From positions 1 through 63,686 of IMG/VR virus record IMGVR_UViG_3300020045_000643: 63,686 nucleotides of DNA, one strand, 5' to 3'. A model generated the notes under the pieces. It did no database searches, had not been told where the DNA came from, and was given only the letters and a program-made list of their open reading frames with translations. Numbering within the stretch: position 1 is the first letter of the stretch; every line of letters starts with the position of its first letter. The stretch comes from a virus (Duplodnaviria; Caudoviricetes). The position numbers were made by a program, and so were the translations under genes. Positions 30,055-52,928 of this stretch are shown here, in pieces.

Positions 30055-30503
30055 ACCTCTCTGAACACTTCACCCTAGACGAAGCCACTCACTCTGACAC
30101 GGCTATTCGTATGGGTATCCCTAATCAACCGTCTACTCTACAACTAGAGAACATGAAGGTTGCTGCCCAAAAACTAGAACAACTCCGTGCTGTTACTGGT
30201 CCACTAAACATTAACTCATGGCTACGTTTGCCTGATGTTAACGTAGCTGTAGGTGGCTCTAAGGTATCCTCACACATGGATGGTTGGGCTATTGACGTCT
30301 CTAGCTCTAAGCTGACCCCTATTCAGCTATGCCAAGAAGTAAAGAAAGCTGGTATTAAGTTTGACCAGATGATCCACGAATTTGGTCGTTGGATGCACAT
30401 CAGCTTTGCACCTGAAATGCGTCAACAGGAACTCACTATCTTCCGTCCAGAAAACAAGTATAAAGCTGGCATCCTCACAGAAGCAGAATACCACGCAGCG
30501 TAA
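30051..30503 (+). CDS. Endolysin, peptidase M15 family
   Basis: LSEHFTL.E...S.TA, INSWLR...N..VGG...SSHM.G.A.D, DQ.I.E...W.H.S. Confidence 0.88.
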   Translation: MNLSEHFTLDEATHSDTAIRMGIPNQPSTLQLENMKVAAQKLEQLRAVTGPLNINSWLRLPDVNVAVGGSKVSSHMDGWAIDVSSSKLTPIQLCQEVKKAGIKFDQMIHEFGRWMHISFAPEMRQQELTIFRPENKYKAGILTEAEYHAA

Positions 30504-30518
30504 TCGGTACCTAATAGG
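30502..30518 (+). promoter_or_regulatory. Putative phage RNAP promoter AATCGGTACCTAATAGG
   Basis: Intergenic 17-mer copy just upstream of phoH. Confidence 0.7.
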
Positions 30519-34716: not shown

Positions 34717-35133
34717 ATGAAAATAGTACTGATGTCCCACGAGGACGTATTAAAATACTGGGACACAGTCTCTAAGCATCTTAATAAATGTTTAGTTCAT
34801 GGGCAGAGTGAATCTACTCTTACTGACTATCTCAGGAAAATTCTTAATGATCAAGCTCACTGCTGGGCTATCATAGAGAATGCACGTATTACGGGCGTAG
34901 GTCTAACAGAAGTGTTATGCTATGCTCAACATAAAACACTTCACATTATTGCTTTCTCTGGTGAAGATTTTAAACAACAAGCACAAGTATTCCCTACAGT
35001 CGAAGAGTTCGCTAAGGGTCTTGGTTGTAAGGCAATAGAACAATGGGGCCGTCAAGGATGGGCTAAGGTACTACCTGAGTATGTACCCGGATTTAAACAA
35101 GCGTACGTGGTTATGCGAAAGGAATTAGAATGA
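34717..35133 (+). CDS. GNAT-like virion assembly protein
   Basis: FAKGLGC..IE.WGRQGWAKVL; position before the ejection proteins. Confidence 0.55.
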   Translation: MKIVLMSHEDVLKYWDTVSKHLNKCLVHGQSESTLTDYLRKILNDQAHCWAIIENARITGVGLTEVLCYAQHKTLHIIAFSGEDFKQQAQVFPTVEEFAKGLGCKAIEQWGRQGWAKVLPEYVPGFKQAYVVMRKELE

Positions 35134-35774
35134 GTTTATTTAGTGATGTCTTTGGTGGCGGTAATAGCGGTGCAGTAACTGAATCAGTACCTGCTTGGTT
35201 ACGTCCATATATGGAAAAAGCTGCAGGTAGTGCTACTAGCGCGTATGATGCAGGTGAATTAAGTAAGGTTGCAGGTAAGAATTTAAACCTAAATACTGGC
35301 TTTGGAATGGGCAGTACTATTTCTGATACCGCTACATCGGGCTTAGATACGTTACAAGATCAACAAGCAAGGTTATTAGAGCAAGCACAGACAGGTGGTC
35401 GTGCAGATCTCCAAGCAGCTCTTGATCAAAACTTAGGTCGTGCTACTGCTAAAGTAGGTCAAGACTACGGTGCATCTGGTACCTTAGGCTCTGCACGACA
35501 ATCATTAGCAGAAGGTACCGCTAAAGGTGCTATCATTGCTGACAATGAGAAAACTATTATGGCTAACAAAGCTGCAGGTGAAGCTGCCTTATCAGGTAAC
35601 GTAGGTAACCAAACAGGTTTAACAACAGGTACAGCTAGTGCATTAACTAACTTAGGCAGTGCAGAACGTGGTGTTGATCAGTCTCAACTAGACTCAACAT
35701 GGCAGGGTATTCAGCGTATGTCGTCTGCCGTGTATGGTAATCCCGCTAAACAAACTGCTATGGGTGGTAAATAA
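35130..35774 (+). CDS. Internal virion / DNA ejection protein
   Basis: G/A/S/Q-rich; P.WLRPY, GTLGSARQ. Confidence 0.65.
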   Translation: MSLFSDVFGGGNSGAVTESVPAWLRPYMEKAAGSATSAYDAGELSKVAGKNLNLNTGFGMGSTISDTATSGLDTLQDQQARLLEQAQTGGRADLQAALDQNLGRATAKVGQDYGASGTLGSARQSLAEGTAKGAIIADNEKTIMANKAAGEAALSGNVGNQTGLTTGTASALTNLGSAERGVDQSQLDSTWQGIQRMSSAVYGNPAKQTAMGGK

Positions 35775-36223
35775 TGAATAGAAAAGATCCTTGGGATTGG
35801 TCTACCCCTTTTCAGGGTAATCTACCACAACCTTTAGGCGCTCAGATAGCTCCTTTAGGTAATCAAAACAACATGCAAGCCCCTCCACCTATTCCCGGTC
35901 AGCCTAATATGATTAGCCAAGCTGTTCAAAATAGAGTTGTTAGTCGTGGATTGAATGAGGTACTACCTGAGAAAGCAACCGCAGCTATCCCAAATAAGGC
36001 ACCTGTGGTTGATGCTGTCCCTGTTCCTGTTGAACAGATTGCTGCACCTGTAATTGAAGCTGCACCATTAGGTAATGGGCTAGCCGCAGCTGGTGGCGGT
36101 AGTGAATTGCTCGCTGCAGGTGCTGAAGCTCAAGCTTTGTTAGAAGCTCAAATGGCTGCAGCCGCTGCTGCTGAATCAGGTGGTTTAATGGCAATGCTAT
36201 CAAGTGCTGCTGCTGCCGCTTAA
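35774..36223 (+). CDS. Internal virion protein, Pro/Ala-rich
   Basis: Low-complexity ORF in the ejection cluster. Confidence 0.55.
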   Translation: MNRKDPWDWSTPFQGNLPQPLGAQIAPLGNQNNMQAPPPIPGQPNMISQAVQNRVVSRGLNEVLPEKATAAIPNKAPVVDAVPVPVEQIAAPVIEAAPLGNGLAAAGGGSELLAAGAEAQALLEAQMAAAAAAESGGLMAMLSSAAAAA

Positions 36224-36233
36224 GGAGAAATAA

Positions 36234-38495
36234 ATGATTGCACCTTTATCTGCAAAACAAGAACGCGAATGGGCTAAACACCACGCTAAGGAGTCTCGTG
36301 AGTCTAAAAAGATGGAACACGAAGAGAATCGTAAACAACAATTACACGAAATAAAGCTACAAGAAGCCGCTGTTAAAGCAGGTCAAGGTGTTGCTCATAA
36401 AGAAGAACTCCACGGTATCAAAGTAAAAGAGCTAGGTGGGCCTCTCTCTGGTAAGCGAGTGAATCGTCAGAAGCTAGGCTTACCTAGTAACAACCCTTTA
36501 GCTGGTTCTGAAGTATTTAACCGTGGCCAACACATGTTACCTAAGGGTACTGATACGGTACCTGCTATGCTAACTCCCGGCGAAGCTGTTATCCCTCGTG
36601 CTGCAGCTCAAGACCCTAAGAATAAACCATTGATCAAACAAATGGTTCAACAAGGTCGTCAAGTTCAACACCATGCACAAGGTACTACAGGTATTGTTCA
36701 GAAACAAAATATGATTCCTATCTTACCTAAAGTAGCTGCTCATCGTAAAGTAAAAGGTTACGCTGACGGTACTGAAGCGGTTCCAAACATGACTAACTAC
36801 TACCACACAGACAGTGCTGCTAGTATGTCTGATGGTACTACTGAAGTGCAACCACAATACTATATTGACGGTGTAGAGGAAGTGCCACCAGTTGTGGTTC
36901 AACCAGAAGTTGCCCAACAAGAACCTGTACAACCAATTGTACAACAAGAAGTTGTTCAACCTGAAGTACCTCAGCCTGTTGTTCAACAAGAAGCAGTACA
37001 ACCAGTTGTTCAGGCAGAAGTACCTGTACAACCCGTTGAACAACCTAAGCCTGTACCTGTTGCTGAAGTATCTGCTGTACCAACAGTAGAAGATAAAGCA
37101 GTTGTTCCTGCACCTGTTGTAGAAGCTGCTGTTACTACCCCACCTAAACCTGTTGCTCCTGTTAATGAGCGAACTAAACCAGAGTATTGGGTTAAACACT
37201 TACAAGGTGTGCAAGCTGATTTAGACAAAGCCGCTGCAAGCAGTAAAGATCAACAAGGTTTTGTAGACTCCTTTAAAGATATCTTCTCATACAAAGGTTT
37301 GAAAGACGCTCTTGGTTTGAACAATCAAGAAGTGGCTCGTATGGCTGTTACCTACTTAGGTGGTCGTGCTCGTGGCTACAACGGTGCTCAATCATTATCT
37401 TACGCTGGTCGTAGCGCTTTTGATAGCTCATTACAACGTCAGAACCGTGAAGCCTCTGAGAAGGGTGCTAACATGCGTCTTGGTGTACAAATGGCTGCAC
37501 AAGAACGTACAAGTGAACGCCTTGATAACGAGACTAAGCGCAAAGAACTTGCTGCTGAGAAGAAAGAGTACGCTGCATTAGCTGCTGCTAAACGTAAAGA
37601 ACTTGAGAACGATCAAGACCGTTACGAAAACTTTGCTGCTAAAGATGTACCTCCTAGTGTTCGCCAAAAGGCTGTTGATATCGCTTACGCACCGCTTAAG
37701 GGTTCTACACCTGAAGAACGTCTAGAAGAACGTCGCCAGAACATGCGTCAAGCTACTACATTGTTAGCTAACAGTGTTGTATACAAAGACCCTAACAGCG
37801 GTCGTCATGATCGCGTTGCTAAATGGGGTTATTACGAAGATGCTAAAGGTAACACAGTATATGCTGCACAAGACCCTTATGGTTCTGGTGATATGATTGT
37901 ACGTCATCCTAACGGTAAGACTGAAAAGATGGGTGGTCAACTATTACGCCCAGAAGGTACTACCGCTAAACAAGGTGAGCTTGTAGCTAAGGTTACAAAG
38001 AATTACTTAGAAGGTACTAAAGGTGCTGACGGTAAACCTATTGACACTTCTGCTGTTGGCGCTAAGATCATGACCGTTATGCAGGACTTCCCCGGTATTG
38101 GTGATAATCCGTTTGCTGTTAATGCTGCGATTGAACCAACCGTTAAAGCTCTTGCTGAATCTGGTAAAGACTATTCTGCTACAGCAGTACGTGCTGCCTT
38201 CACAGGTAACATGGTTAAGACTTTGATGCCTACTCAAACTGATTTGTTTGTTGCTCAAGGTAGCAAGCCAGGTGCTGTCAAACCAGTATCAGGCAGCTCA
38301 TTAGTAGAGTTTGGTAAAGCTATGCAGGATGCTCAATCAGCTAACAGAGTTGATCTTTCTAAAGCAACTGAAACATATGTTGACGTTTGGAATAAACTAC
38401 CTGTAAATGATAAGCAAAAGATTGCCAACACTACTCGTGATGGTTATTCTCCATTCCAAGAGTTCGTTATTCGTGACGTTAAGAAACAAAAGTAA
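36234..38495 (+). CDS. Internal virion protein with GTDTVPAMLTPGE motif and P/V/Q/E-rich linker
   Basis: 753-aa ORF with AAGGAG RBS, in the ejection cluster. Confidence 0.7.
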   Translation: MIAPLSAKQEREWAKHHAKESRESKKMEHEENRKQQLHEIKLQEAAVKAGQGVAHKEELHGIKVKELGGPLSGKRVNRQKLGLPSNNPLAGSEVFNRGQHMLPKGTDTVPAMLTPGEAVIPRAAAQDPKNKPLIKQMVQQGRQVQHHAQGTTGIVQKQNMIPILPKVAAHRKVKGYADGTEAVPNMTNYYHTDSAASMSDGTTEVQPQYYIDGVEEVPPVVVQPEVAQQEPVQPIVQQEVVQPEVPQPVVQQEAVQPVVQAEVPVQPVEQPKPVPVAEVSAVPTVEDKAVVPAPVVEAAVTTPPKPVAPVNERTKPEYWVKHLQGVQADLDKAAASSKDQQGFVDSFKDIFSYKGLKDALGLNNQEVARMAVTYLGGRARGYNGAQSLSYAGRSAFDSSLQRQNREASEKGANMRLGVQMAAQERTSERLDNETKRKELAAEKKEYAALAAAKRKELENDQDRYENFAAKDVPPSVRQKAVDIAYAPLKGSTPEERLEERRQNMRQATTLLANSVVYKDPNSGRHDRVAKWGYYEDAKGNTVYAAQDPYGSGDMIVRHPNGKTEKMGGQLLRPEGTTAKQGELVAKVTKNYLEGTKGADGKPIDTSAVGAKIMTVMQDFPGIGDNPFAVNAAIEPTVKALAESGKDYSATAVRAAFTGNMVKTLMPTQTDLFVAQGSKPGAVKPVSGSSLVEFGKAMQDAQSANRVDLSKATETYVDVWNKLPVNDKQKIANTTRDGYSPFQEFVIRDVKKQK

Positions 38496-38513
38496 TTAAA
38501 AGGAGGTGAGCCT

Positions 38514-41500
38514 ATGGGTTCATTATTTCAAGAAGCATTAGCTAACAGTAAAGAGGTTAACCCTCAGCCATCTCCAATGAAGGTTAACGGTGTAGAGTCT
38601 ATTACTACACCTAACTGGATTGACCCTGATACGGTAAAGTTGGGTAGCCAAGCATATCGTGTTAAAGGTTACAACGCTCCAGAAGTACCACACATTAAAG
38701 GTGGTGTTTTTGTTCCGGGTGAAGATCAAGGAGCATCGGCAAAGATTCCCGAGTTAGCTCAACCGTTAGGTTACAATAATATCGTTACTACCGGCGATGA
38801 AAGCTACACACGTAAAGTAGGTGATATCCAAGATAAAAGAGGTAATAGCTTAAGTGCTTTAGTTAATGCTACTAGTTTAGCGCCTATTAACAAGTTTACT
38901 TCACCTCAAGACTTAGATGCAAGGGCCGCTACTAATGCTTTTGCCTTCTTAAACCCTAAGATGGCTGACAAAGACCCTGCTATTGCTGCAGGTATTCAAG
39001 CAAAGAAAGAGGAAGAGCAAAGAGCACAATCTTTAAATCGACCTTTGTATATGCCAAAGGTAGAAGTCTTTGATGAAGCTCAATACGCTGGCTTCAAGCG
39101 TAGTATTGGGCACCAAGCTGTTAAACGTGAAGAAGAAGAAATCGCTCGGTTAGAAAAGTCTTTAAAGGAAGACAACTTACCTACCGATCTTCGTGCATCA
39201 TTAGAAAAACGTCTTGAGCAATCTAGACAAACAATTTATGCTGCATCAACTACTCCTGATTTTGTTGGTGGTGTAATGATGAGATCTAATGATCGCACTA
39301 TTATGAACCAAGCACACGATCAAGCCACTGTATCATTTTACAATGGTTTATACGACATTGCTAAAGGTGTTGGTGGTGTATTGCAAATGACTGGTGATAA
39401 AGCTGGTTGGGAATGGTTAAGCAAACGCGCTGACCAAGGTGTTAAGCGTTTAGGGGTTGAACAAAACCAAATGCCTGATACACTATCTTCATTCAGAGAC
39501 ATCAATACAGGTGGTGGTGCTTGGGATACTATTGGTAACTCAGCTACCTATGTAGGTAACTTAGTTGCTGGTACATTACCTCAAATGGTTGTAATGGCTG
39601 GTGCTGCTATGGCTACAGGGGGTACAGGTGCTTCTGCATGGTTACTTAGCTCTGCACCAAGTACTGCTTTATACTCTGGTCAGTTTTATGCTGATCAACC
39701 TGACGATAAAAAGAATGCTGGCTTAGCTACCTCTATGGGTATTGCTTCGGGTATCCTTGACAAGCTTGGCTTAGACTTTATGATGGGTAAGCTCGGTAAG
39801 AATATGTTTACTGCAGCGGGTCATAAGGAGCTGGTGCAAGCTGTTGTTGATAACAGTAAAAAGACTGGTATTAATCTTTCTAAGGAAGCTGCAGAGCAAC
39901 TCATTGAAACAACATCTAAGTCTGAGATTCTTAAATTAGCTCAGTTCAGTGGTGACTTTGCCAAGCGACAAATTGCTGGTATAGAGATCACTGGTAAACG
40001 TGCTGCTGGTTTAGCTGTACAAGCTGGTGGTGAATCCGCTACAGAAGCTGCTCAACAATATGCTCAAGCATGGGGTGAGTCAGGTAGTTGGAGCAACAAC
40101 TTTAAGTATGCTCGTGGCTTTGAAGACCAAATCTTAGAAGCTGCAGTAGGTGGCGGTGTGATGGGTGGAGCGTTCCATGCATCAGGTTCTGCTATGAATG
40201 CAGCTCAATGGCATTCAGCTATGAGCGCTCAAGAAGAGTACCGTAGAGTACTCGGTGAGTCACAAGTGTTTCAAGCTGAGAACGCTAACAAGGTAGCTAC
40301 TAACAATGGTGGTCATCGTGATATCTTAAGTCTTGTTGATGCTACTTCAGGTGAAGCTACTACTGGTAAGTCAGCAAAGTTAGCTGATATCCCTTCTGAA
40401 GATAGTTTCAGATGGAGCAAATTACTAGAGCCAGGTCGCTTAGTACGTCAACTAGCTCACACAGCTATTCCATCTATTGTAGATGAGAACGGTGCTTTAA
40501 AAGAAAACTTAGGTCACCTCAAGGCTATCATGGGTGGTTATGGTATTCTCCCGGGCGATCATGCTTCAGGATACTATCAACGATTACTTGGTAAGTGGTC
40601 TGGTGGTATGGTCATTAAAGACGGTAACACAGAGTTTATCCCTACCAACAAAGACAGTTTAGCTTCTATGTTAGGTGTTAACACTGCAGAAGCTAACAAG
40701 ATGGTACGTGATGCTTGGGTTAACTACTGGTCTAAGGGTCAGGAAGTACCCAACGATACTCCACAAGGGCAACACCTTAACTGGTGGAAGAACGCTTTAG
40801 ATGAGACTCGTACAAACATGCTCGAAGAAGCTCGTGTTGCGGGTGCTGATACTAGTATGGTAACTAACTCTAACGCCTTGTTTGAGTCATCTAAGATTAT
40901 TCCATCACAGATTGTTGCTCACAAGAACGAATTAGTTGATGCTTTAGTTTCAGAAGGTGCTACACCACATGAAGCTCAACAGGCGGTTACTAACATTGTT
41001 TCAGGTAACAAACAAAAAGCTTCTTTAGCTCGACACTTCTTATCTGAACATAAAGTATTCTCTAAGCCTGAGTTAGCTCACTTATTTGAGAGTAACGTGT
41101 TTGATAACATTGAGCACGTTAAAGAAACATTAGCCAACAACATCATGCGTAACCGTTATATCGGTAAAGAAGGTGAAGTTATTGGTAAGCTATTATTAAA
41201 GGCTAAAGCTGCAGGTGAGTTTGGTAACGACCCTAACGATACACAATTTAAAGCTACAGTATCTGAAGTAAAAGCTTGGGTAGATATTATGAATGGTGAT
41301 TATCATTCGCTACGTGACTACCCTAACCTTCAAAAGCTATCTAACTTCTTTTGCACAGCTACAATGTTGTCATCGCTAGGTAAAGCTGCTTTGTCTTCTC
41401 AAGTAGAAACCTACATGGCTACACTTGGTACTCCTGCTCATTTGATTAGCAAACAATTAGCTACTTACTATAAAGAATACGGCAGTGAAATTGCTTCTGA

Positions 41501-42731
41501 CTTAAACAAAGGTAACTCTTGGGCTACTTCTGTTATGGGTATTAGCATGATGCGTAATGTACCTGATATTAAGCTACAACGCAAGCTATCAGAGTTATAC
41601 AATGAAGCTACGCAAGCAGATGTATCTGAGAAACGTGCTACAGAGATCTCTGAGGAAATCGAAGGGCTACACAAACGATTGTTTGGTCGTTCTATCTTTC
41701 ATAGAGTTGGTCTAAGTGAAACAGGCTTTGATGCTGCATCTAAGTTTGAATACCAAGATTCAGTAGGTTCTACTGCTCGTAAAATGATGGGTAGATTTGC
41801 AAGCTTGATTACGTTACGTGCTCAAACAGATGCAAACCGTTTAGCTGTTATCAGTGTTGCTGGTGATATCTTAAGCCAACAGTTAGTTACTCTATCTACA
41901 GTTGATCCTGCTATTCGTAGTAGTGCATTCAGCTCAGGCAAGGGTTTAACTAATGAGCAAGCTCAGGCGTTAACAGAGCTACAACAGTACGGTCTTGATG
42001 TTAACCTAGCACTCAAGTTCCTTGAAGCTACAGATGGTAAGAAATTACCTTTTGATAACTCATTTACTGATGCTGACTTAGCTGGTGACCCTGAACTACA
42101 ACGATTCCAAGATCAAATCTTTACTGTGATAGGTAACTTTGTGGATGCTCGTGTAGTTAATCCGCAAGCACATAACACACCTAAGATTTATAATGACCCT
42201 CGTTGGAAGGCTATTACGTTGATGCAGAAGTTTATGGCGACAGCTCATGCTGTTATCTTACCACGACTGTACAAGCAATACCTCAAAGAAGGTCATGCGG
42301 GTATGAAGTACTCTGCGTTTGCTACTATGGCTGGTTCATTACTAGCTGCTCAATTAATTAATCAATTAAAAGATTTCTTATCATACGATGAAGAAAGAGA
42401 TAATCCGTATCTAAAAACAAGAGCTAAGAAAGCCCAACGGACTCTTAACACTTCTGGTCTACTCGGTCAATTCGAAAAGATCACTGACAAAATGTCACCC
42501 GTTATTCCTAATTCTGGTCCTAAGTTTACTAATGATCCAGCAGGTTGGGGTGTTGACAAAATTAAAGATATGTCTCCAGTTGCTTCTTGGACTTCCAAGG
42601 TAGTAGGTGGTACATATAATACGCTTAACGGCAATACTGAAAAAGGCGTTAAACAGCTCGTAAGAGCCGCGCCCGTGGTAGGTAGCTTTCCTAGATTAGC
42701 TAAAGACTTTGTTTCAGCATTCAAACAATAA
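38514..42731 (+). CDS. Large internal virion (ejection) protein with N-terminal SNase-like domain
   Basis: 1405 aa; GGESATEAAQQ...AVGGGVMGG ejection-protein motif; N-terminal IDPDT...RVKGYNAPE. Confidence 0.7.
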   Translation: MGSLFQEALANSKEVNPQPSPMKVNGVESITTPNWIDPDTVKLGSQAYRVKGYNAPEVPHIKGGVFVPGEDQGASAKIPELAQPLGYNNIVTTGDESYTRKVGDIQDKRGNSLSALVNATSLAPINKFTSPQDLDARAATNAFAFLNPKMADKDPAIAAGIQAKKEEEQRAQSLNRPLYMPKVEVFDEAQYAGFKRSIGHQAVKREEEEIARLEKSLKEDNLPTDLRASLEKRLEQSRQTIYAASTTPDFVGGVMMRSNDRTIMNQAHDQATVSFYNGLYDIAKGVGGVLQMTGDKAGWEWLSKRADQGVKRLGVEQNQMPDTLSSFRDINTGGGAWDTIGNSATYVGNLVAGTLPQMVVMAGAAMATGGTGASAWLLSSAPSTALYSGQFYADQPDDKKNAGLATSMGIASGILDKLGLDFMMGKLGKNMFTAAGHKELVQAVVDNSKKTGINLSKEAAEQLIETTSKSEILKLAQFSGDFAKRQIAGIEITGKRAAGLAVQAGGESATEAAQQYAQAWGESGSWSNNFKYARGFEDQILEAAVGGGVMGGAFHASGSAMNAAQWHSAMSAQEEYRRVLGESQVFQAENANKVATNNGGHRDILSLVDATSGEATTGKSAKLADIPSEDSFRWSKLLEPGRLVRQLAHTAIPSIVDENGALKENLGHLKAIMGGYGILPGDHASGYYQRLLGKWSGGMVIKDGNTEFIPTNKDSLASMLGVNTAEANKMVRDAWVNYWSKGQEVPNDTPQGQHLNWWKNALDETRTNMLEEARVAGADTSMVTNSNALFESSKIIPSQIVAHKNELVDALVSEGATPHEAQQAVTNIVSGNKQKASLARHFLSEHKVFSKPELAHLFESNVFDNIEHVKETLANNIMRNRYIGKEGEVIGKLLLKAKAAGEFGNDPNDTQFKATVSEVKAWVDIMNGDYHSLRDYPNLQKLSNFFCTATMLSSLGKAALSSQVETYMATLGTPAHLISKQLATYYKEYGSEIASDLNKGNSWATSVMGISMMRNVPDIKLQRKLSELYNEATQADVSEKRATEISEEIEGLHKRLFGRSIFHRVGLSETGFDAASKFEYQDSVGSTARKMMGRFASLITLRAQTDANRLAVISVAGDILSQQLVTLSTVDPAIRSSAFSSGKGLTNEQAQALTELQQYGLDVNLALKFLEATDGKKLPFDNSFTDADLAGDPELQRFQDQIFTVIGNFVDARVVNPQAHNTPKIYNDPRWKAITLMQKFMATAHAVILPRLYKQYLKEGHAGMKYSAFATMAGSLLAAQLINQLKDFLSYDEERDNPYLKTRAKKAQRTLNTSGLLGQFEKITDKMSPVIPNSGPKFTNDPAGWGVDKIKDMSPVASWTSKVVGGTYNTLNGNTEKGVKQLVRAAPVVGSFPRLAKDFVSAFKQ

Positions 42732-42743
42732 AGGTAAATTAGA

Positions 42744-45700
42744 ATGAATATTCGTGCTCCTAATGTTAATGCAGCAGTAAGAGCACCACTATCCGCAGAC
42801 CAGCTTCGTGCTATGTCTTCGGGTATGTTTGGTGCACAAGCGGCTCCTGAGATTCCCGGCTCTGAAGCCGTAACACAAGGTATTAAACAGTACAATCCAT
42901 ATGCGGTTGATGTTCCTCAAATGCCTGACACTGGTTTGAAAGGTGTAGTTGAGGCTACCCCTATCACACCTACCTCTGACTATACTGACTTAGCTATGGC
43001 GACTCAGTCACCGTACGCTGCTCGTCCTCGTTACGAACCTGTTCTTGATGAACAAGGTCAGCCTATGTTGGATGAGAGTGGTCAATACCAGACTCGCCCT
43101 ATTGAAATGGGCCGTTTCGGTGAACAACAACAAGCTGAATTAGAACAGGTACCTAACTTTGGTGCTGCTATGGGTGATGGTACTGACTCAGTAGGTATTG
43201 CTAAGAGTATTCTTGGCTTGAAGACTGCTGCCAGTGAGAACGCCCCTGCATCTCCTGCTACTAACCGTAGTGAGATGATGTCTGGTCGTGCTTCACCTGA
43301 GACTATTCGTAAGTGGGCTGATACGTCAGCTCCTTCTTTGTCTCTTGTAACTGAGGATACAACCACTGATTTGTTTAGTCCTGAAGCTGTTGTAGGTTCT
43401 ACGGATGAAGGTTATGAGGGTGTTCCTATTGGTATGAAAGTGTTTCATGACCATGACATTCCCTTCGAATTAGCTCGCCCTGTTTCCACTGTGTTTGGTA
43501 TTGCTCACGCATTAGCTAACGCTCAAACAGGTACTATGCGTGGTGATGAAGCGCCTCCTGTTATTGTAGACAAGAACGGTAAAACTCTTGAAGATGCTCT
43601 TCCAGAGAAAGATATTGTTAACTCTATCATTCATGGTGCTAACAATGCGCTTGACCGTTTGGGTTATAACTTACCTCCAGAAGCTGTACGTAGACTTGCT
43701 GAAGCCAAAGTTAAAGCTGAGATCTACCGTGGTAACTATCGCCCAGTAATGAGTAAAGATGGTCACTGGGTACTAGCCACTTCTCCTGATATGAAGAAGC
43801 AAGCTCGTGACTTAGCTTACTTGACTGCTGCTTTATCTGGTGATGAGCGTAGAAAGTTCCCTTCAAAGGTTCCTCAATTATCTGGTTCAAGCTTCTTGAA
43901 GCCAGGTTCACAGACAACTAAGAACTCACTACGGTTTCCAGGTGCTAAGGCATCTGCAGCTGAAGTTGCTAAGGATATCTTAGGTTCTATTGCTGAAACG
44001 TTCGAGATGATTTCTGTTATGTCAACGACTAAACAGATGCAAGATATTGAAGCCAAGTTGGATGATCCAGCTAACCCTAAATACTCTACAAGTATCTTTG
44101 CTAAAAGACACAAGATGTCCCAAGAAGACTACAACAAGCTAAAGGATAACGTCAGCCCTGATGAGGGTATGTCTATGAATGATCCTCGCTTTAAGGCTAA
44201 ACAAGAACGACATGCAACTGAAGAGATGCAAGCTCGTTTGGCTAAGCTAAAGTATGATGTTCAAAACGCTAACGATATTAAAGGTTTAGCATATACTGGT
44301 TATATGCACTCAACAGCTAACCAACGTTTCTTCCGTACTAATGCTGGTACTGATATCTTAGCCTCTAAGAACGGTACTCGTGAGATGCTTAACTTTGGTC
44401 TCAAGTCATTAGCTAAAGCAGCTGATGTGTTTGACCCTAAACAAGTTAAGCGTATTCAAGATATGTCTAAATCAGTGTTCTCTAAGGTAGGTCGTGCTCG
44501 CCAAGAAGCTCTATTAAAGATGACCCCTAATGATCGTGCTATGCTTGGTCTAATGGAAACTGCTGTTGTTAACTTCTATACATTCTCTGGTGACCCTTCT
44601 ATCCAAGATAAACGTATTGCTAAGTATTCAGAAGTTGACTTGATCAACATGTATACTCCTGAGATTGGTATGCACTTAGCAGGTCTAGGTAAAGAGTTCG
44701 TTCAGTGGTTGTCAGGTGATACACAGGTTAACACCAAGAACATTGAAGAGCTATTAGCAGGTATGCCTCGTGGTGAAGCTCAAAGCTGTCAGAACTTATG
44801 GTTTGATATGGCTAACCTATACGAAGCATTTAAAGATCCAGCTCAGAAAAATAAGCTTATTAAACTTACTACAATGAACTATGATGACGGTAATCAGAAC
44901 GGTGTGTTCTTACAGTCATTGTATGCTGGTAAGCCTGAAGTAGCTGTTCGTTTGGGTTCTTATAATCCTAACCTTGCTGACATGCGTGGATTCGCACTCA
45001 ACAAGATTGGTGATAAGCTTGAAGACTTCTTAAAGAGCAAAGAAGAAAAGCTAGATGCTTGGAAAGAGTTCTTAACTAAAGCTAGTAAGACAGATAGCAT
45101 GGCTTCTGACTTGTTTAAAGTACCGTTGATGCAGTATGCGTATGGTAAAGATGGTTCAATGTTTACTGAACACATCTATGAGTTCATTAAAGACTCTGAT
45201 ACATATGCACCTATTGCTTATGATGCTTTGATTAAGTCTGGTGCTTACTCTGACCTAACTACTGCTGCAGACGATATGTCTAAGGCTATGGAAGCTACTC
45301 TTAATGAAGTTATTGACCCACAATTTACTAGCACACTAAAGCGACTTGGTCGTATGTTTGCTGTGATGGGGACTGTACCTACTATTAAGGGTGTTGCTGG
45401 TGATGACTACGTGTTTAGCCCTGTTGATGTCGGCTTTATCCCTGACGCAGCTAAGGATGAAATCCAACAAGAAGTAGATGAAGAAGGTAATACTTACATC
45501 GCTAAGAAGCGTGGATTCCAGTCTAACACTTATACAACTCCTGATGGTGTTGTTGAGTCTACAACTGCTGTACGCCAATTCAACCCTAACGCTACTAAAG
45601 GTCTACAGAAATTCTTCAACAAGTCAAAGGACAGTTACGACTCTTTCGAGAATCCGTTAGGCTCTGCTTTATCTAGATTACTAGGTGTTATGCCTATCCA

Positions 45701-46442
45701 GTCTACTGACGGTGACTTACTTAAGTTGATGTTAATTGCTGTAAACTCTGATCAGAAAATTCCATTACCTGTAGCAACAGTTCACGACTCGTTGATTACT
45801 ACAATGGACACTATGCATCTATACCGTAATGCTTATAATAACATTGCTATCCCACAAGCTGTACCAGAGATTAAGAAGTTTGCTTCTCGATTGAAAGACG
45901 CTTATGACAAAGCAAGATCAGACTTGTTTGCACAAGTATCTGAAGACAAGTATATTGGTATTGGCGCTAATGGTGACTACCCTTCATTGGGCGCTCTCTT
46001 TGATGAACTAAATAATAAAATCAATAATGATCAATACAAAGAAGTGTTCTTAAGAAGAAACAATAACAAGCTAGAAAAGTGGGAAGAGTACGTAGCAAAG
46101 TCCGAAGAGACTCTACGTGAAGCCCGTAAACAAGGCTGGAGACCTAACACTCCTAACTTAGCTATTGATTCTGCTCAATTCAAACAGTTGTTTAGCCTAT
46201 CAGAATCACTACTTAAAATTGGTGGCGCTGAGAACCGCTTTAAGCAATGGGTAAATAACTTCGCTTCAAACGTTGAGCAAGGCTTTAAGAAATTAAACCT
46301 TAATCCAGACGTTCGTAAGCATGGTATTGCTCAGATGACTCAAGCAGGTGGCTCAGGTAAGCGTATGGTTTCAAAAGAGCCTACTGTTGAACCCCCCAAA
46401 CCTGTTGACTTAGCTTCTATGATTCCTGAATTAAACAGATAA
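42744..46442 (+). CDS. Putative virion-associated single-subunit DNA-dependent RNA polymerase
   Basis: Motif A YDDGNQNG, motif B KVPLMQYAYG, PIQSTDG and motif C VHDS in T7/N4 RNAP order; last gene of the ejection cluster. Confidence 0.8.
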   Translation: MNIRAPNVNAAVRAPLSADQLRAMSSGMFGAQAAPEIPGSEAVTQGIKQYNPYAVDVPQMPDTGLKGVVEATPITPTSDYTDLAMATQSPYAARPRYEPVLDEQGQPMLDESGQYQTRPIEMGRFGEQQQAELEQVPNFGAAMGDGTDSVGIAKSILGLKTAASENAPASPATNRSEMMSGRASPETIRKWADTSAPSLSLVTEDTTTDLFSPEAVVGSTDEGYEGVPIGMKVFHDHDIPFELARPVSTVFGIAHALANAQTGTMRGDEAPPVIVDKNGKTLEDALPEKDIVNSIIHGANNALDRLGYNLPPEAVRRLAEAKVKAEIYRGNYRPVMSKDGHWVLATSPDMKKQARDLAYLTAALSGDERRKFPSKVPQLSGSSFLKPGSQTTKNSLRFPGAKASAAEVAKDILGSIAETFEMISVMSTTKQMQDIEAKLDDPANPKYSTSIFAKRHKMSQEDYNKLKDNVSPDEGMSMNDPRFKAKQERHATEEMQARLAKLKYDVQNANDIKGLAYTGYMHSTANQRFFRTNAGTDILASKNGTREMLNFGLKSLAKAADVFDPKQVKRIQDMSKSVFSKVGRARQEALLKMTPNDRAMLGLMETAVVNFYTFSGDPSIQDKRIAKYSEVDLINMYTPEIGMHLAGLGKEFVQWLSGDTQVNTKNIEELLAGMPRGEAQSCQNLWFDMANLYEAFKDPAQKNKLIKLTTMNYDDGNQNGVFLQSLYAGKPEVAVRLGSYNPNLADMRGFALNKIGDKLEDFLKSKEEKLDAWKEFLTKASKTDSMASDLFKVPLMQYAYGKDGSMFTEHIYEFIKDSDTYAPIAYDALIKSGAYSDLTTAADDMSKAMEATLNEVIDPQFTSTLKRLGRMFAVMGTVPTIKGVAGDDYVFSPVDVGFIPDAAKDEIQQEVDEEGNTYIAKKRGFQSNTYTTPDGVVESTTAVRQFNPNATKGLQKFFNKSKDSYDSFENPLGSALSRLLGVMPIQSTDGDLLKLMLIAVNSDQKIPLPVATVHDSLITTMDTMHLYRNAYNNIAIPQAVPEIKKFASRLKDAYDKARSDLFAQVSEDKYIGIGANGDYPSLGALFDELNNKINNDQYKEVFLRRNNNKLEKWEEYVAKSEETLREARKQGWRPNTPNLAIDSAQFKQLFSLSESLLKIGGAENRFKQWVNNFASNVEQGFKKLNLNPDVRKHGIAQMTQAGGSGKRMVSKEPTVEPPKPVDLASMIPELNR

Positions 46443-46444
46443 GC

Positions 46445-46492
46445 AAATAAAAACCCCTACTAGGATTATTCCTAATAGGGGTTATTTTTTTT
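46445..46492. terminator. Bidirectional terminator where the two genome arms converge
   Basis: aacccctactagga-ttat-tcctaataggggtt with flanking A and T tracts. Confidence 0.85.
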
Positions 46493-46759
46493 TTATTTCT
46501 GTTGAGCCATTAGCTCTTTGACTTGACGTCTTGTGTTAGTGGCCTGTTCAACTGCTGCAGCCATAGCTTGCTCTTCAGTATTACCTTTCTTTAGGTAACC
46601 TTCGTAGTTCTGCTTCTGCATCTTTTGGATTGCTGCTTCATTGATTGCTGGAGTACCAGCTAGGTTAGGGTCTAAACCTAGTTGCTCACATAAGTCAGCA
46701 TCGGAGGTTTCTGAATCACCACGGAGGGCGAAGATATTGTAGTTCTTGTATTCACTCAT
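46493..46759 (-). CDS. Hypothetical protein
   Basis: ORF coupled to dps. Confidence 0.6.
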   Translation of the reverse strand: MSEYKNYNIFALRGDSETSDADLCEQLGLDPNLAGTPAINEAAIQKMQKQNYEGYLKKGNTEEQAMAAAVEQATNTRRQVKELMAQQK

Positions 46760-47326: not shown

Positions 47327-47428
47327 ATTAATTCTCCTGATTGAATGTATCCCATGATGACTCATACAATGGGTCATAGGGTAAATTTAATTCGTAGTCT
47401 TCAATGTTATCATCCATGATTGTGTCCT

Positions 47429-47504: not shown

Positions 47505-47512
47505 GTTATTAG

Positions 47513-50726: not shown

Positions 50727-52928
50727 TTAGCAAAAGAAATACTTTGAGTTATAAACGTCTTGGAGATCTAAACTTCCGGTCTCAGGTTGAGGGAAAGTGA
50801 ATGATTCTTTATTCTCCATGAGAGTTTCTTGAAGAGTGTTAAAGAAGTTCTCTGTATCATACTGAGCAATGAAGTTCATCTTGGTTACTTCTTGTAGAAA
50901 GTCCACTTCATCAGCGTGAGTACTAAAAGAGTCATGAACTGCACCGAAGCTACCGTTAAAGCCAACAATAGTATTAGCCATGTGAGCAGCATCATAGGAA
51001 TGTACAACGTTAGGGCTAATACCCGAAGCAAAACTCCTACGGCATGGTACTTTTTCCCCAGTTTCTTTATTGAGGACATCCACTTTAATAACGTGCATGA
51101 TACGACCGTCTTTATTTCCCGTAATACCTCGTATCGTACCTCGCTGTTTGCGTTCGTGCTGAAGATAAGCTTTGTAAACCACAGGGAAGCCACTAGGAGT
51201 GTGCCAAGTAAGGTTATTTCTACCGGAGTTAAGTTCATGTTCTGCAATCTTCTGTAAGTATTTAGTTGTTTTAAGTGGACCAGCACATACAGTGTTGATA
51301 GCCTTAATTAAGTTACCTGCAAGAGTATCACACTGATCTTGATCAATGTTGTACTTCACAGTGAAACCTTCTACGTGACAATCATCATACATGTTCTTGG
51401 CGATACGTTGTTTACCTGCTGAGTAAGCACGAGTCATAGAGCCTCGTTTAGCAATACCCTTACGGATATGCTTCATAGGCATCTGCTTCTCTGTAAACCA
51501 GTCAGGCATGATGGTGATAAGTTCTTTAGCAACAGCTACATAGAAGTCTTTTTGGATAGGAGTAGGTACTAAGGACACTAAGGTACCTGCTTGTTTATCC
51601 TTAGACATAGCTGCAAGATGTTGCCAGCCGTTATTAGAGCCATCAATAGGGATAGGGAACCCTGACATGTATACTTGTCGGAGAATCTTTGACTGGTTGT
51701 ACCCTTCAATCTCTAAACAAGCAGCTAAGAAGCTGTAAGGCTTTTCAGCTGATTGGTCTATGATTTTGAAGCGAGCAACACTACCAATGAGTTGTTGGTT
51801 ATTGCGAACCCACAACGCACGATCATCTAGAGTCATTTTATCTAGGGAAATAGTATCGAGACCTTCCTCTAGCAAATAGCTCTTGTAGTCTGTGGTAAAG
51901 TAGCTTGGAATCTCATCAATGTTAAATGATTTGTTATAGCAAGCTGCAGTATGAACACATAGCCAGTAGTAGCCTCGTTCAGTAACTTCCTTTTTGTTAG
52001 CGAATAAAAAGAGACTACGAGCTAAGTCACTACCTTGGAACTCAAGGAATGATTCAGCATAGTAGACTCGTCCACGATAGTCACAAGATACTTCTTGGTA
52101 GAAGGTCTGGTCATTAACTAATCGTGCTTTTTTTAACACCTGATTGTACTCGAAGTACTTACTCAGCATACGTTGTAGCTTAGGGTCTTTCTTACCCATG
52201 AACTTAGTACCATCTAAGTGGTTAAGTTTCTTAGGTAAGTTAAGGTTCTCATGGTGAATGTTGTATACAAAGATCTCACCATTCTCATCAACTAAGTCAA
52301 GAGTTTCTGAAGGGTATGTGTTCTCCATAGCCTCTAGCACTGGTAGGTTAAGCTTCCAAGGCTGTTGACGTAATGTTTCTAGACTCTTGATGAATGGTTT
52401 GTCTAAGTATTCATGGAACAATCGACTGTTAGACCAGCCCTTGATGAACGGTTCTTTAGTAAGGTGACTATACAAACCAGTGATAGGTAGTAGTGGTTCA
52501 AATGATGTGCCGATTAACGTGGGCTTAACATCATCTGTTTGGTTAACAATACGTACCATGTATGGAGCCTTACGACCATCATATTCACGGAAGATATCGA
52601 TTAGACCGTCTTGGAGGAATGTTTCAAGAAGAAGGTCTCCAAGGCTAAGTGTGGATTTGATGTTGTGTTCATCAGTGCCGATAGCCCTTGCAATTCTCTT
52701 GCCGATAAGATCAGATGCGAAGGTGAGTTTAACCGAAGCGCTGTGCGTAGCATTCTTGTTACGTATGCAGTATCGCAGTAATGTGTCCCATGATTCATTG
52801 ATAAACCTTTCTAGATCGTATTCCCATGTGGGGTGGTATGCAAGGAGACGCGCACCCTCATTGTAGATCTTATCTGAGTTTAATACTACCTTGGCTACTC
52901 GTTCAGTAAGATATTGTGTTGGATTCAT
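50727..52928 (-). CDS. T7/T3-family single-subunit RNA polymerase with short N-terminus
   Basis: DYRGRVY, PIDGSNNGWQH, RKGIAKRGSMTRAYS, PNVVHSYDA, VHDSF and C-terminal YFFC. Confidence 0.95.
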   Translation of the reverse strand: MNPTQYLTERVAKVVLNSDKIYNEGARLLAYHPTWEYDLERFINESWDTLLRYCIRNKNATHSASVKLTFASDLIGKRIARAIGTDEHNIKSTLSLGDLLLETFLQDGLIDIFREYDGRKAPYMVRIVNQTDDVKPTLIGTSFEPLLPITGLYSHLTKEPFIKGWSNSRLFHEYLDKPFIKSLETLRQQPWKLNLPVLEAMENTYPSETLDLVDENGEIFVYNIHHENLNLPKKLNHLDGTKFMGKKDPKLQRMLSKYFEYNQVLKKARLVNDQTFYQEVSCDYRGRVYYAESFLEFQGSDLARSLFLFANKKEVTERGYYWLCVHTAACYNKSFNIDEIPSYFTTDYKSYLLEEGLDTISLDKMTLDDRALWVRNNQQLIGSVARFKIIDQSAEKPYSFLAACLEIEGYNQSKILRQVYMSGFPIPIDGSNNGWQHLAAMSKDKQAGTLVSLVPTPIQKDFYVAVAKELITIMPDWFTEKQMPMKHIRKGIAKRGSMTRAYSAGKQRIAKNMYDDCHVEGFTVKYNIDQDQCDTLAGNLIKAINTVCAGPLKTTKYLQKIAEHELNSGRNNLTWHTPSGFPVVYKAYLQHERKQRGTIRGITGNKDGRIMHVIKVDVLNKETGEKVPCRRSFASGISPNVVHSYDAAHMANTIVGFNGSFGAVHDSFSTHADEVDFLQEVTKMNFIAQYDTENFFNTLQETLMENKESFTFPQPETGSLDLQDVYNSKYFFC

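Follow-up and report, generated by a model that had tools for sequence, protein, structure and literature searches.

A divergent single-subunit RNA polymerase, predicted from sequence and structure models, closes the virion operon of a marine phage and may be a compact counterpart of the N4 virion polymerase

The last gene of the virion operon in IMG/VR record IMGVR_UViG_3300020045_000643 (Duplodnaviria; Caudoviricetes) encodes a 1,232-aa protein that standard sequence libraries do not recognize. We asked what this protein is, and whether its place behind a block of presumed internal virion genes indicates that it is packaged and injected with the DNA. The window analysed is the whole 63,686-nt stretch of this record. 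An initial annotation made from the sequence alone had proposed a second, divergent single-subunit RNA polymerase that acts as a compact virion RNAP.

The observation behind that proposal holds: the reading frame is open, and every motif it listed lies where it was placed. YTGYMHSTANQRFF occupies residues 517-530, TMNYDDGNQNGVFLQS 710-725, LADMRG 744-749, DLFKVPLMQYAYGK 789-802, VMPIQSTDGDLL 982-993, and ATVHDSLIT 1011-1019. The D715 codon (44886-44888) falls inside the interval given for motif A (~44875-44915), the K792 codon starts at 45117, and the H1014 codon at 45783. K792 and Y800 are 8 positions apart, as are T7 K631 and Y639 (T7 numbering from our alignment), and the upstream ORFs of 214, 149, 753, and 1405 aa exist on the same strand. 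The interpretation is only partly supported, because the polymerase assignment is well founded whereas packaging and injection remain an inference.

Table 1. Positions of the polymerase gene, its motifs, and neighbouring features in the 63,686-nt window. Conservation is given for an alignment of 75 family members unless the 20-sequence alignment is named.
Position	Strand	Residues	Feature	Observations
42744..46442	+	1-1232	Gene for the predicted divergent single-subunit RNAP (P0001 in our family set); last gene of the + (late/virion) arm	Best structural matches of the model are all single-subunit RNAPs
42744..43400	+	1-219	N-terminal extension rich in Pro, Gln, Ala, and Gly, outside the modelled RNAP fold; candidate packaging or ejection segment (inferred)	Relatives have an extension of similar length; matches to a 220-1232 query start at about residue 215-300 of full-length relatives
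43464..43898	+	241-385	Possible winged-helix-like module inside the N-terminal domain (borderline, only a lead)	Model residues ~22-166 match MukF N-terminus, SSV1 F-93, and other winged-helix chains at Z 6-8.6 with 70-107 aligned
44307..44333	+	522-530	T/DxxGR-type motif, HSTANQRFF	R528 kept in 75/75; aligns to T7 R425 and N4 mini-vRNAP R424
44877..44921	+	712-726	Motif A, NYDDGNQNGVFLQSL, with catalytic Asp D715	D715 kept in 75/75; G720 is G in 66 and N in 9; align to T7 D537/G542 and N4 D559/G564
45105..45152	+	788-803	Motif B (O-helix), SDLFKVPLMQYAYGKD, with K792, P794, Y800, and G801	K792 is K in 60 and R in 15; P794 kept in 62/75, Y800 in 74/75, G801 in 60/75; align to T7 K631/Y639/G640 and N4 K670/P672/Y678/G679
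45381..45653	+	~880-970	Beta-rich insertion with ten strands between the fingers and motif C, where T7 RNAP carries its specificity loop (location inferred)	DSSP strands between model residues 661 and 750; aligns loosely to T7 ~720-780
45687..45725	+	982-994	VMPIQSTDGDLLK, counterpart of T7 PNFVHSQDGSHLR	Q986 replaces T7 H784 and is kept in 72/75, with H in 2; D989 kept in 75/75
45777..45797	+	1012-1018	Motif C, TVHDSLI, with catalytic Asp D1015 and H1014	D1015 kept in 75/75, H1014 in 74/75; align to T7 H811/D812
45822..45854	+	1027-1037	Family-specific signature YRNAYNNIAIP	Invariant in the 20-sequence alignment; N1032 kept in 74/75
46323..46337	+	1194-1198	Conserved C-terminal GIAQM	I1195, Q1197, and M1198 invariant in the 20-sequence alignment; eight of its sequences (P0005-P0012) end 1-3 residues after it; structural alignments end here against the T7 C-terminus (model residue 980 on T7 residue 883)
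46452..46483	.		14-bp-stem hairpin between the convergent arms; likely terminator closing the late unit	Scored on the - strand with a T tail
35130..42731	+		Four co-oriented upstream genes of 214, 149, 753, and 1405 aa; presumed internal or ejection proteins (inferred)	Order conserved in related loci
30502..30518	+		Nearest upstream copy of the 17-bp T7-like promoter motif; probable start of the late unit that ends with the polymerase gene	At the thresholds used, no further copy between 30518 and 46442
50727..52928	-		Co-resident canonical T7-like RNAP, 733 aa, 10 Cys	phrog_414 at E 4.5e-99; relatives carry PF00940

Predicted fold and catalytic residues

Searches of Pfam, PHROG, and PDB sequences and a tblastn search of phages did not recognize the protein. 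There was no PF00940 (RNA_pol) match even at E<=1, nor was this family among those matched by the 20 relatives scanned, although the family of the phage's other RNAP does carry PF00940. We modelled residues 220-1232 with AlphaFold2 using a 75-sequence alignment and obtained a confident model (pLDDT 91.2, pTM 0.89). Comparison of such a model with T7 RNAP and the N4 mini-vRNAP had been named beforehand as a test of the polymerase assignment, and it strongly supports it. Foldseek against the PDB returned 73 matches at E<=1e-3, and every row listed is a T7 or mitochondrial RNAP, the best being yeast mtRNAP (5e-13) and T7 RNAP (4e-12). VIA re-alignment gave Z 27.6 for a T7 RNAP elongation complex (532 aligned, rmsd 4.9), Z 22.3 for yeast mtRNAP (656 aligned), and Z 19.4 for N4 mini-vRNAP (714 aligned), and all 50 rows are single-subunit RNAPs. 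An exhaustive VIA comparison with 48,161 representative chains gave T7 RNAP at Z 21.8 (661 aligned), N4 mini-vRNAP at Z 19.1 (716 aligned), POLRMT at Z 18.3, and yeast mtRNAP at Z 18.1. Searching BFVD likewise gave T7-like RNAPs and N4-type vRNAPs.

Profile-profile alignment (hhalign) with a T7-like profile (probability 28.5, E 6e-4, 410 columns) places R528, D715, G720, K792, Y800, G801, H1014, and D1015 on their T7 counterparts, and alignment with an N4 mini-vRNAP profile (probability 82.3, E 1e-5, 318 columns) places R528, D715, K792, P794, and Y800 on the N4 residues, whereas phmmer, hmmsearch, and tblastn detected no similarity to the N4 protein. The motifs are not chance occurrences, since the key positions are invariant or nearly so in the 75 family members (Table 1), as is R546 (75/75). 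The initial annotation had cautioned that the Arg preceding the motif B Lys appears to be replaced by Ser, and this is also right: the motif B Arg (T7 R627) is not kept, and the position is K in 44, S in 19, N in 4, A in 2, and R in 2 of the 71 counts listed.

A family-A DNA polymerase or primase-like enzyme is a very unlikely alternative. Six of 20 family members give weak PF00476 (DNA_pol_A) matches, the best at E 0.0013, and family-A DNA polymerases match the palm and fingers at Z 7-10. However, these matches reach Z 10.3 or less over about 330 residues, compared with Z 18-27 over 530-716 residues, including the N-terminal domain, for single-subunit RNAPs. In addition, motif A mostly has Gly at the position of T7 G542, where DNA polymerases of this family have a Glu steric gate, motif C is HDS as in T7 RNAP, and the phage already has a family-A DNA polymerase and a primase-helicase.

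It is similarly improbable that the protein is a packaged ejection or structural protein that retains the RNAP fold but no longer polymerises, serving as a DNA clamp, plug, or channel part. Its position among presumed ejection proteins, its fast evolution, the loss of the Arg equivalent to T7 R627, and the replacement of T7 H784 by Gln would fit such a pseudo-enzyme. Yet every residue needed for catalysis stays invariant or nearly so at 16-77% pairwise identity, with K792 always K or R, which is not expected of a dead enzyme. Judged from the model and the conserved residues, we are confident that the protein is an active RNA polymerase, its activity being inferred.

Genomic context and the inference of packaging

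A canonical T7-like RNAP lies downstream on the opposite strand (Table 1), so the proposal of a second RNAP is right, as is the estimate that it is about one third the size of the N4 enzyme (1232 aa against 3500 aa). Assignment to an SU10-type podovirus has some support, in that the 303-aa protein matches PF24175 SU10_adaptor at E 6.7e-10. We examined 47 related IMG/VR loci, of which 38 have at least 4.5 kb upstream. All 38 have the homologue of the 1405-aa protein directly upstream on the same strand, with the polymerase as the last gene of the late arm, and all 33 loci with at least 7 kb downstream have the T7-like RNAP on the opposite strand. Roseobacter phage CRP-7 has the same order. These loci are related to one another, and thus neither the synteny counts nor the correlations below represent independent events. 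A 12-nt gap separates the gene from its upstream neighbour, consistent with a late unit bounded by the promoter motif and hairpin in Table 1.

Cysteine is scarce in this protein (1 in 1232), in the four upstream proteins (1 in 2521), and in the five-protein block as a whole (2 in 3753), compared with 119 in 6316 residues of the minus (replication) arm. Of 81 full-length family members, 63 have no cysteine and 80 have 2 or fewer, while 107 T7-like RNAPs of the co-resident type have 6-17 (median 11). For comparison, N4 gp50 has 0 in 3500, T7 gp15 0 in 747, T7 gp16 0 in 1318, and T7 RNAP 12 in 883. Low cysteine is not exclusive to ejected proteins here, however, as TerL has 1 Cys in 543 residues. 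The protein also diverges at the pace of its neighbour: median identity to the window across loci is 35.6% for this protein and 39.9% for the 1405-aa protein, but 78.6% for the T7-like RNAP and 75.7% for the primase. Its identity tracks that of the 1405-aa protein (Spearman 0.82, n=42) better than that of the T7-like RNAP (0.54, n=35).

The four upstream proteins could not be tied to known ejection proteins. They have no PHROG or Pfam match, and hhalign probabilities against T7 gp13-16, N4 gp51-54, and the N- and C-terminal domains of N4 gp50 are all 1.6 or below. The model of the 753-aa protein is poor (pLDDT 64), and its best match is at Z 7.5 to generic helices. The sizes of the 214-, 753-, and 1405-aa proteins are similar to those of the T7 proteins (196/747/1318 aa), and both sets lack cysteine or nearly so.

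No promoter attributable to this enzyme was found: a crude search, made without knowledge of the physical genome end, detected no repeated hairpin or second motif class in 8800-11420 or genome-wide. The only recurrent promoter motif, the 17-bp T7-like motif, also precedes genes near the start of the minus arm (8801, 5760) and is unchanged in genomes whose copy of this protein is only 28% identical, which fits the T7-like RNAP. The T7-like RNAP gene itself lies about 22 kb into the minus arm, far from any obvious early start.

A possible but less likely reading is that the protein is an active RNA polymerase that is not packaged and works in the cytoplasm late in infection, for example transcribing a special gene set, priming replication, or making RNA needed for packaging or concatemer processing. 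The predicted fold and catalytic residues fit this equally well, no early promoter class was found for the enzyme, and the 17-bp motif alone could serve both arms through the T7-like RNAP. No virion proteomics was found for CRP-7 in the text consulted, and the case for packaging is circumstantial. On the other hand, making an enzyme as the last gene of the virion operon is odd for a cytoplasmic transcription role, selection against cysteine runs through the whole family whereas the cytoplasmic T7-like RNAPs of the same phages have 6-17, the protein and its 1405-aa neighbour diverge together, twice as fast as the replication and transcription enzymes, and N4 gp50 occupies the same place.

We therefore favour, with moderate confidence, the interpretation that the gene encodes an active DNA-dependent RNA polymerase of the T7/N4 single-subunit class that is packaged in the virion. 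What the analysis establishes is the fold, as modelled, the full catalytic set by alignment (two Asp, the O-helix Lys and Tyr, Gly at the ribose-gate position, and the T/DxxGR Arg), and the conservation of these residues across the family. RNA synthesis with rNTP preference, and all that follows, is inferred; the evidence for rNTP preference is only indirect, namely Gly at the position of T7 G542 in 66 of 75 members and Tyr at the position of Y639 in 74 of 75. In this view, the protein would be made late, packed into the capsid with the four proteins encoded just upstream, and ejected through the tail with the DNA. In the cell, it would transcribe the first-entering early genes and perhaps help to pull the genome in, as N4 vRNAP does, before the 733-aa T7-like RNAP takes over at the 17-bp promoters found on both arms. 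This would be an N4-like two-polymerase programme run by a stand-alone enzyme in a CRP-7-type marine podovirus lineage outside the Schitoviridae.

Comparison with known polymerases

The T7 RNA polymerase/PF00940 family, which includes mitochondrial RNAPs, provides the best structural match, and model residues 1-980 align to T7 92-883, so that both the N-terminal and the polymerase domains are covered. Compared with T7 RNAP, the protein has the N-terminal extension, the large beta-rich insert where T7 has its specificity loop, Gln for H784, Ser or Lys for R627, and almost no cysteine, and it is encoded in the virion operon rather than among early genes.

Phage N4 virion RNA polymerase gp50 (Schitoviridae vRNAP; mini-vRNAP domain, PDB 2po4/3c46/3q0a), with its partner N4 RNAPII, gives the longest structural alignment of any hit, and the profile of our protein is somewhat nearer to N4 mini-vRNAP than to T7-like RNAPs, with the match running from T/DxxGR through motifs A and B. 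Both share the K-x-P-L...YG form of motif B, both are the last gene of the late arm and convergent with the replication arm, both have no cysteine or almost none, and both co-exist with a second, T7-like RNAP. The protein is not a giant polypeptide, however: only 219 residues precede the RNAP fold and about 33 follow it, and the ~1000-aa N-terminal and ~1400-aa C-terminal domains of gp50 are absent. Motif C is HDS as in T7, not the FDG of N4, the partner RNAP is a single chain, and the phage is not a schitovirus, its capsid protein being nearest to that of CRP-7.

CRP-7 gp33 (QBQ72826.1, 1235 aa), annotated as a hypothetical protein, is a homologue (hhalign probability 99.2, E 1.3e-19 over 658 columns). 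It lies after two proteins of more than 1200 aa at the end of the structural arm, facing the T7-like RNAP gene, has 0 Cys, and keeps IQGGD, IHDALIT, and NAYNNIAIP. It has only about 21% identity to the window's family profile and belongs to a separate subfamily with family members P0116, P0100, P0103, and others. The paper describing CRP-7, in the parts consulted and leaving aside its supplements, names only ORF30 as an RNA polymerase.

Smaller or unconventional candidate virion RNAPs outside classical N4 are the split vRNAP of Alteromonas phages AltAD45-P1..P4 (PMC3821669) and the putative vRNAP of Stenotrophomonas phage StenR_269 (PMC10747016), for which the authors used absence of cysteine as an argument for injection. 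The AltAD45 proteins (1404 + 2481 aa) are BLAST-detectable pieces of N4 gp50, and in StenR_269 the assignment rests on size, helices, and lack of cysteine, with low-confidence models and no RNAP fold shown. Here, the RNAP fold and active site are shown by a confident model and profile alignments, and the protein is a stand-alone 1232 aa.

Genome context and relatives of the 1232-aa protein

The record is a complete virus sequence of 63,686 bp with a 121-bp direct terminal repeat. The ORF for the 1232-aa protein is open, and the observation made in the initial annotation is confirmed, as every motif string it listed is present in the translation at the place it had assigned. The gene is the last of a long plus-strand arm that runs from terminase, portal, scaffold, and capsid through an SU10-type adaptor, several fibres, lysis genes, and PhoH to more virion proteins. 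It is preceded, with a 12-nt gap, by co-oriented ORFs of 214, 149, 753, and 1405 aa. The fibre genes include three paralogues of 460, 327, and 361 aa, all of which match phrog_4492 tail fibre (E 1.9e-42 to 2.6e-51) and form a multi-fibre array. The gene faces a convergent minus arm carrying a DNA-binding protein, ribonucleotide reductase (RNR), a 733-aa T7-like RNAP (phrog_414, E 4.5e-99), primase-helicase, exonuclease, DNA polymerase, and ligase, as well as a 201-aa ORF that matches a homing-endonuclease PHROG (phrog_314, E 3.4e-10). A hairpin separates the two arms. The RNR is a single 623-aa ORF, whereas Roseobacter phage CRP-7 has two separate CDSs, gp44 and gp46, both annotated as adenosylcobalamin-dependent ribonucleotide reductase, with gp45 between them, which suggests a gene split by an inserted element.

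Positions of the features discussed in the text (record coordinates unless stated otherwise)
Feature	Position	Strand	Detail
Conserved non-coding block	11100-11260		within the ~800-bp divergent region between the minus arm and TerL
17-bp motif before TerL	11369-11393	+	palindromic core
Fibre genes	22474-28185	+	460, 327, and 361 aa
17-bp motif	30502	+	only other copy on the plus arm at the thresholds used
Region with matching RNA-library contigs	30401-50400
Five-protein block	35130-46442	+	214-, 149-, 753-, 1405-, and 1232-aa proteins
753-aa protein (p753)	36234-38495	+
1405-aa protein (p1405)	38514-42731	+
1232-aa predicted polymerase	42744-46442	+	last gene of the plus arm
Winged-helix-like module (borderline)	43464-43898	+	residues 241-385 of the polymerase
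D715 codon	starts at 44886	+
K792 codon	starts at 45117	+
H1014 codon	starts at 45783	+
Hairpin between the arms	46452-46483		14-bp stem
Promoter after the T7-like RNAP stop	50707-50723		window equivalent of the variant site in loci L011-L018
201-aa ORF	62211-62816	-	homing-endonuclease PHROG match
CRP-7 gp44 to gp46	35552-38170 (CRP-7)		split RNR annotation

Sequence libraries did not recognize the 1232-aa protein. Pfam gave only HTH_Tnp_1 at E 0.039, PHROGs gave no family, and tblastn against 50,697 phage records gave no match at 1e-5. Searches of PDB sequences with the single sequence (phmmer) and with a 20-sequence profile (hmmsearch) gave only noise, namely an integrin I-domain at E 0.37 and MinD at E 0.09, and hhalign of the 20-sequence family profile against the phage's own T7-like RNAP as a single sequence gave a probability of 0.08. 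The only hint was weak PF00476 (DNA_pol_A) matches in 6 of 20 relatives, the best at E 0.0013.

A word-indexed search found 19 relatives at 32-97% identity, all of 1196-1389 aa and none named. An exhaustive phmmer search of residues 220-1232 against 1.84 billion cluster representatives found 102 at E<=1e-3 and 55 at E<=1e-30, and the full-length hits have 1034-1464 aa. In the 20-sequence alignment, the motifs listed in the initial annotation are the most conserved blocks. We then aligned 75 sequences, which run down to about 16% identity to the query. In this alignment, R528, R546, D715, D989, and D1015 are invariant, Y800 and H1014 are kept in 74 of 75, K792 is K or R in all, G720 is G in 66 and N in 9, and Q986 is kept in 72 of 75.

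Predicted fold and active site

AlphaFold2 modeling of residues 220-1232 with the 75-sequence alignment gave pLDDT 91.2 and pTM 0.89. A Foldseek search against PDB returned 73 matches at E<=1e-3, and every listed row is a T7 or mitochondrial RNA polymerase, the best being yeast mtRNAP at 5.1e-13 and T7 RNAP at 4.2e-12. Structural re-alignment with VIA gave Z 27.6 to a T7 elongation complex (532 aligned, rmsd 4.9), Z 22.3 to yeast mtRNAP (656 aligned), and Z 19.4 to N4 mini-vRNAP (714 aligned), and all 50 rows are single-subunit RNAPs. An exhaustive comparison with 48,161 representative chains placed T7 RNAP first (Z 21.8, 661 aligned, model residues 1-980 on T7 92-883), followed by N4 mini-vRNAP (Z 19.1, 716 aligned), human POLRMT (Z 18.3), and yeast mtRNAP (Z 18.1). 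Only after these came family-A DNA polymerases, the class hinted at by the weak PF00476 matches, at Z 10.3 or less over about 330 residues. BFVD returned T7-like RNAPs and N4-type vRNAPs. The predicted fold is that of a T7/N4-type RNAP, N-terminal domain included, and not merely a polymerase palm. The N-terminal domain also contains a module that matches winged-helix DNA-binding domains (MukF N-terminus, SSV1 F-93, and Sso10a) at Z 6-8.6, which is borderline.

To place the active site, we built a T7-like profile of 14 sequences (T7 RNAP, the phage's own RNAP, the CRP-7 RNAP, four other named phage RNAPs, and seven metagenomic ones) and an N4 mini-vRNAP profile from 8 schitoviruses. The hhalign match to the T7-like profile is weak but coherent (probability 28.5, E 6e-4, 410 columns). 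It runs through all motifs and pairs R528 with R425, D715 with D537, G720 with G542, K792 with K631, Y800-G801 with Y639-G640, Q986 with H784, D989 with D787, and H1014-D1015 with H811-D812. The match to the N4 profile is stronger (probability 82.3, E 1e-5, 318 columns), covers T/DxxGR to motif B, and pairs R528 with R424, D715 with D559, K792 with K670, P794 with P672, and Y800 with Y678. Motif B thus has the N4 form (K-x-P-L...YG), while motif C has the T7 form (HDS; N4 has FDG). The Arg four residues before the motif-B Lys is not kept, as the initial annotation had cautioned.

Position, cysteine content, divergence, and expression context

In 47 related IMG/VR loci, the order on one strand is p138, p214, p753, p1405, and then this gene (p214, p753, and p1405 being the 214-, 753-, and 1405-aa proteins), and a small ORF, the DNA-binding protein, RNR, the T7-like RNAP, and the primase follow on the other strand. 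All 38 loci with at least 4.5 kb upstream have the p1405 homologue directly upstream on the same strand, and all 33 loci with at least 7 kb downstream have the T7-like RNAP on the opposite strand. The nearest cultured phage is CRP-7, grown on Rhodobacteraceae strain FZCC0042 (capsid protein 53.7% identical, RNAP 31.6%), which has the same layout, and its gp33 (1235 aa, 'hypothetical protein') is a homologue at hhalign probability 99.2, E 1.3e-19. N4 itself has gp50 as the last gene of the late arm, convergent with the replication arm.

The protein has 1 Cys in 1232 residues and the five-protein block has 2 in 3753, whereas the minus-arm proteins have 119 in 6316 and the T7-like RNAP has 10 in 733. 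Across the family, 63 of 81 full-length members have no Cys and 80 have 2 or fewer, in contrast to 107 T7-like RNAPs of this phage group, which have 6-17 (median 11). Low cysteine is not restricted to presumed ejected proteins here, as TerL also has only 1 Cys in 543. Known ejected proteins show the same trait, with 0 in 3500 in N4 gp50, 0 in N4 gp51 and gp52, 0 in 747 in T7 gp15, and 0 in 1318 in T7 gp16, while T7 RNAP has 12 in 883.

Median identity to the window across the loci is 35.6% for this protein, 39.9% for p1405, and 35.4% for p753, but 78.6% for the T7-like RNAP, 75.7% for the primase, and 79.3% for RNR. For example, in one of the related loci (L010), the RNAP, primase, and RNR are 96-99% identical while this protein is 51% and p1405 is 45%. 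Its identity tracks p1405 (Spearman 0.82, n=42) better than the T7-like RNAP (0.54, n=35), and RNAP and primase track each other at 0.92; the loci are related, so these figures are descriptive.

The four upstream proteins have no PHROG or Pfam match. Profiles of p214, p753, and p1405 (14 sequences each) aligned by hhalign with T7 gp13-16, N4 gp51-54, and the N4 gp50 N- and C-terminal domains gave nothing, the best probability being 1.6. An ESM Atlas search gave only unnamed viral clusters for p753 and, for p1405, a sub-threshold SNase lead (score 0.88) to a cluster in which 48% of members carry PF00565. The p753 protein has a conserved N-terminal motif around residues 107-142 (D..PAMLTPGEAVIP...AAQ), followed by about 200 residues of Pro-rich, poorly conserved, and apparently disordered sequence and a helical C-terminal half with pLDDT 75-93. 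Its AlphaFold2 model is poor overall (pLDDT 64.2, pTM 0.34) and its best VIA matches are generic helical pieces at Z 7.5 or below, which gives no verdict on whether it is gp15-like. The sizes of the neighbours do resemble those of T7 (214/753/1405 against 196/747/1318) and they share the scarcity of cysteine, yet calling them ejection proteins is an inference.

A 17-bp promoter motif occurs nine times at the thresholds used, nearly always facing genes, and on the plus arm it occurs only before TerL and at 30502. The gene therefore lies at the end of a late unit, and a polymerase made last, together with virion parts, is most simply explained if it is packaged. The copy before TerL has a palindromic core (CCTATTAGG / CCTAATAGG), so that a second, partial copy reads leftwards towards the minus arm, an arrangement also found in a further locus (G004). 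The motif also precedes genes near the head of the minus arm. After the T7-like RNAP gene, it is letter-for-letter conserved in genomes whose copy of the 1232-aa protein is only 28% identical (loci L051-L054), and one clade (L011-L018) has a variant at this fixed position, GTTGTCCCCTAATACC instead of GTCGGTACCTAATACC, which may be a co-evolving RNAP/promoter specificity switch. This fits recognition by the T7-like RNAP and identifies no template for the new enzyme.

We found no promoter class attributable to the new enzyme. A sigma-70 and terminator scan of 8700-11500 was not above shuffles, a repeat search of 8800-11420 gave only short chance-like families, folding of 11080-11400 as ssDNA gave z -1.75, and a genome-wide count of exact 11- and 12-mers found no second motif class. 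Comparison of six genomes upstream of TerL showed no hairpin family but a conserved non-coding block, in which a T-poor A/C/G-rich tract is followed by GGGGGGTCAC and then TTTTTCACACACAAAGA. Five or six related genomes share this block, although the flanks do not align, and it may be an origin, a packaging or end site, or an early control region. The T7-like RNAP gene lies about 22 kb into the minus arm, which raises the question of what first transcribes it; an injected RNAP would answer this question, but the point is an argument and not evidence. Four metatranscriptome runs from four studies, whose records are labelled freshwater, hold small shares (0.08-0.13) of the gene's sampled words, as contigs of 150-620 nt that are 90-99% alike and scattered over the late arm and beyond. 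Relatives of the phage may thus be present in these RNA libraries, but carried-over DNA is also a possible source, and the contigs show neither transcription nor timing and support no statement on habitat.

Interpretation and relation to known systems

The interpretation in the initial annotation is partly supported. That the protein is a divergent second single-subunit RNAP is established as far as computation can take it, and we hold this with high confidence, whereas its packaging in the virion and injection are plausible and now better supported, more likely than not, but unproven. What the analysis itself shows is the predicted T7/N4-type fold, an active site that appears competent from its aligned and conserved residues, and an N-terminal extension lying outside the modeled RNAP fold; RNA synthesis, packaging, ejection, and the order of events during infection are inferred. 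In the mechanism we consider most likely, the T7-like RNAP would transcribe the late unit from 30502, and the 1232-aa polymerase would be made last and packed in the head with the cysteine-poor internal proteins, in which its 219-residue, low-complexity N-terminal extension may take part. At infection, the polymerase would pass through the tail after or with the channel-forming proteins, refold, and start RNA synthesis on the entering DNA, thereby expressing early genes and perhaps dragging DNA in, before the T7-like RNAP takes over.

A broader reading, which we regard as slightly more likely than not, is that the protein is a natural 'mini-vRNAP', a stand-alone, cysteine-free RNA polymerase of about 1200-1400 aa that travels with a T7-sized set of ejection proteins and starts infection, conserved across a widespread lineage of aquatic CRP-7-type podoviruses (47 IMG/VR loci; 102 clusters at 50% identity). 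On this reading, injecting a single-subunit RNAP would not be an N4/Schitoviridae peculiarity, and the family would be a third deep branch of phage ssRNAPs, sharing motif-B features with N4 vRNAP and motif C with T7. It could be close to the form from which the giant N4 enzyme grew, and it would be a new small orthogonal RNAP whose promoter chemistry is yet to be defined. A one-third-size enzyme in the same genomic place, in an unrelated and environmentally common podovirus lineage, would show how little is needed to deliver a polymerase through a short tail, would give a tractable model for transcription-coupled genome entry, and would add a deeply divergent ssRNAP branch for evolutionary work (the T7, N4, and mitochondrial RNAP relationships) and for biotechnology. 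The presence of a homologue in the cultured roseophage CRP-7 makes these ideas directly testable. Even if the enzyme is not packaged, about 100 sequence clusters now labelled 'hypothetical protein' can be annotated as RNA polymerases.

Our literature searches found no paper that names CRP-7 gp33 or this family as a polymerase (PMC5512222, PMC13492108, and PMC11445570 were among the papers returned). The text of the CRP-7 paper names only ORF30 as an RNAP (PMC6918029), although its supplementary ORF tables, which we did not see, could hold an annotation of ORF33. PMC10386132 and PMC12014285 contained nothing relevant, and PMC12629253 matched only through CRP-7xx phage names. Two related ideas are in print, namely the split, BLAST-detectable vRNAP of AltAD45 phages (PMC3821669) and a 'putative vRNAP' in StenR_269, which was argued from size, helices, and lack of cysteine without a fold (PMC10747016).

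The closest known system is the N4 vRNAP with RNAPII. Virion-delivered single-subunit RNA polymerases are known from N4-like phages, where the enzyme is a 3500-aa giant whose size and flanking domains are thought to be tied to injection. The protein described here differs from the N4 system in its size (one third), the absence of the N4 flanking domains, a T7-type motif C, a single-chain partner RNAP, and a different virus lineage.
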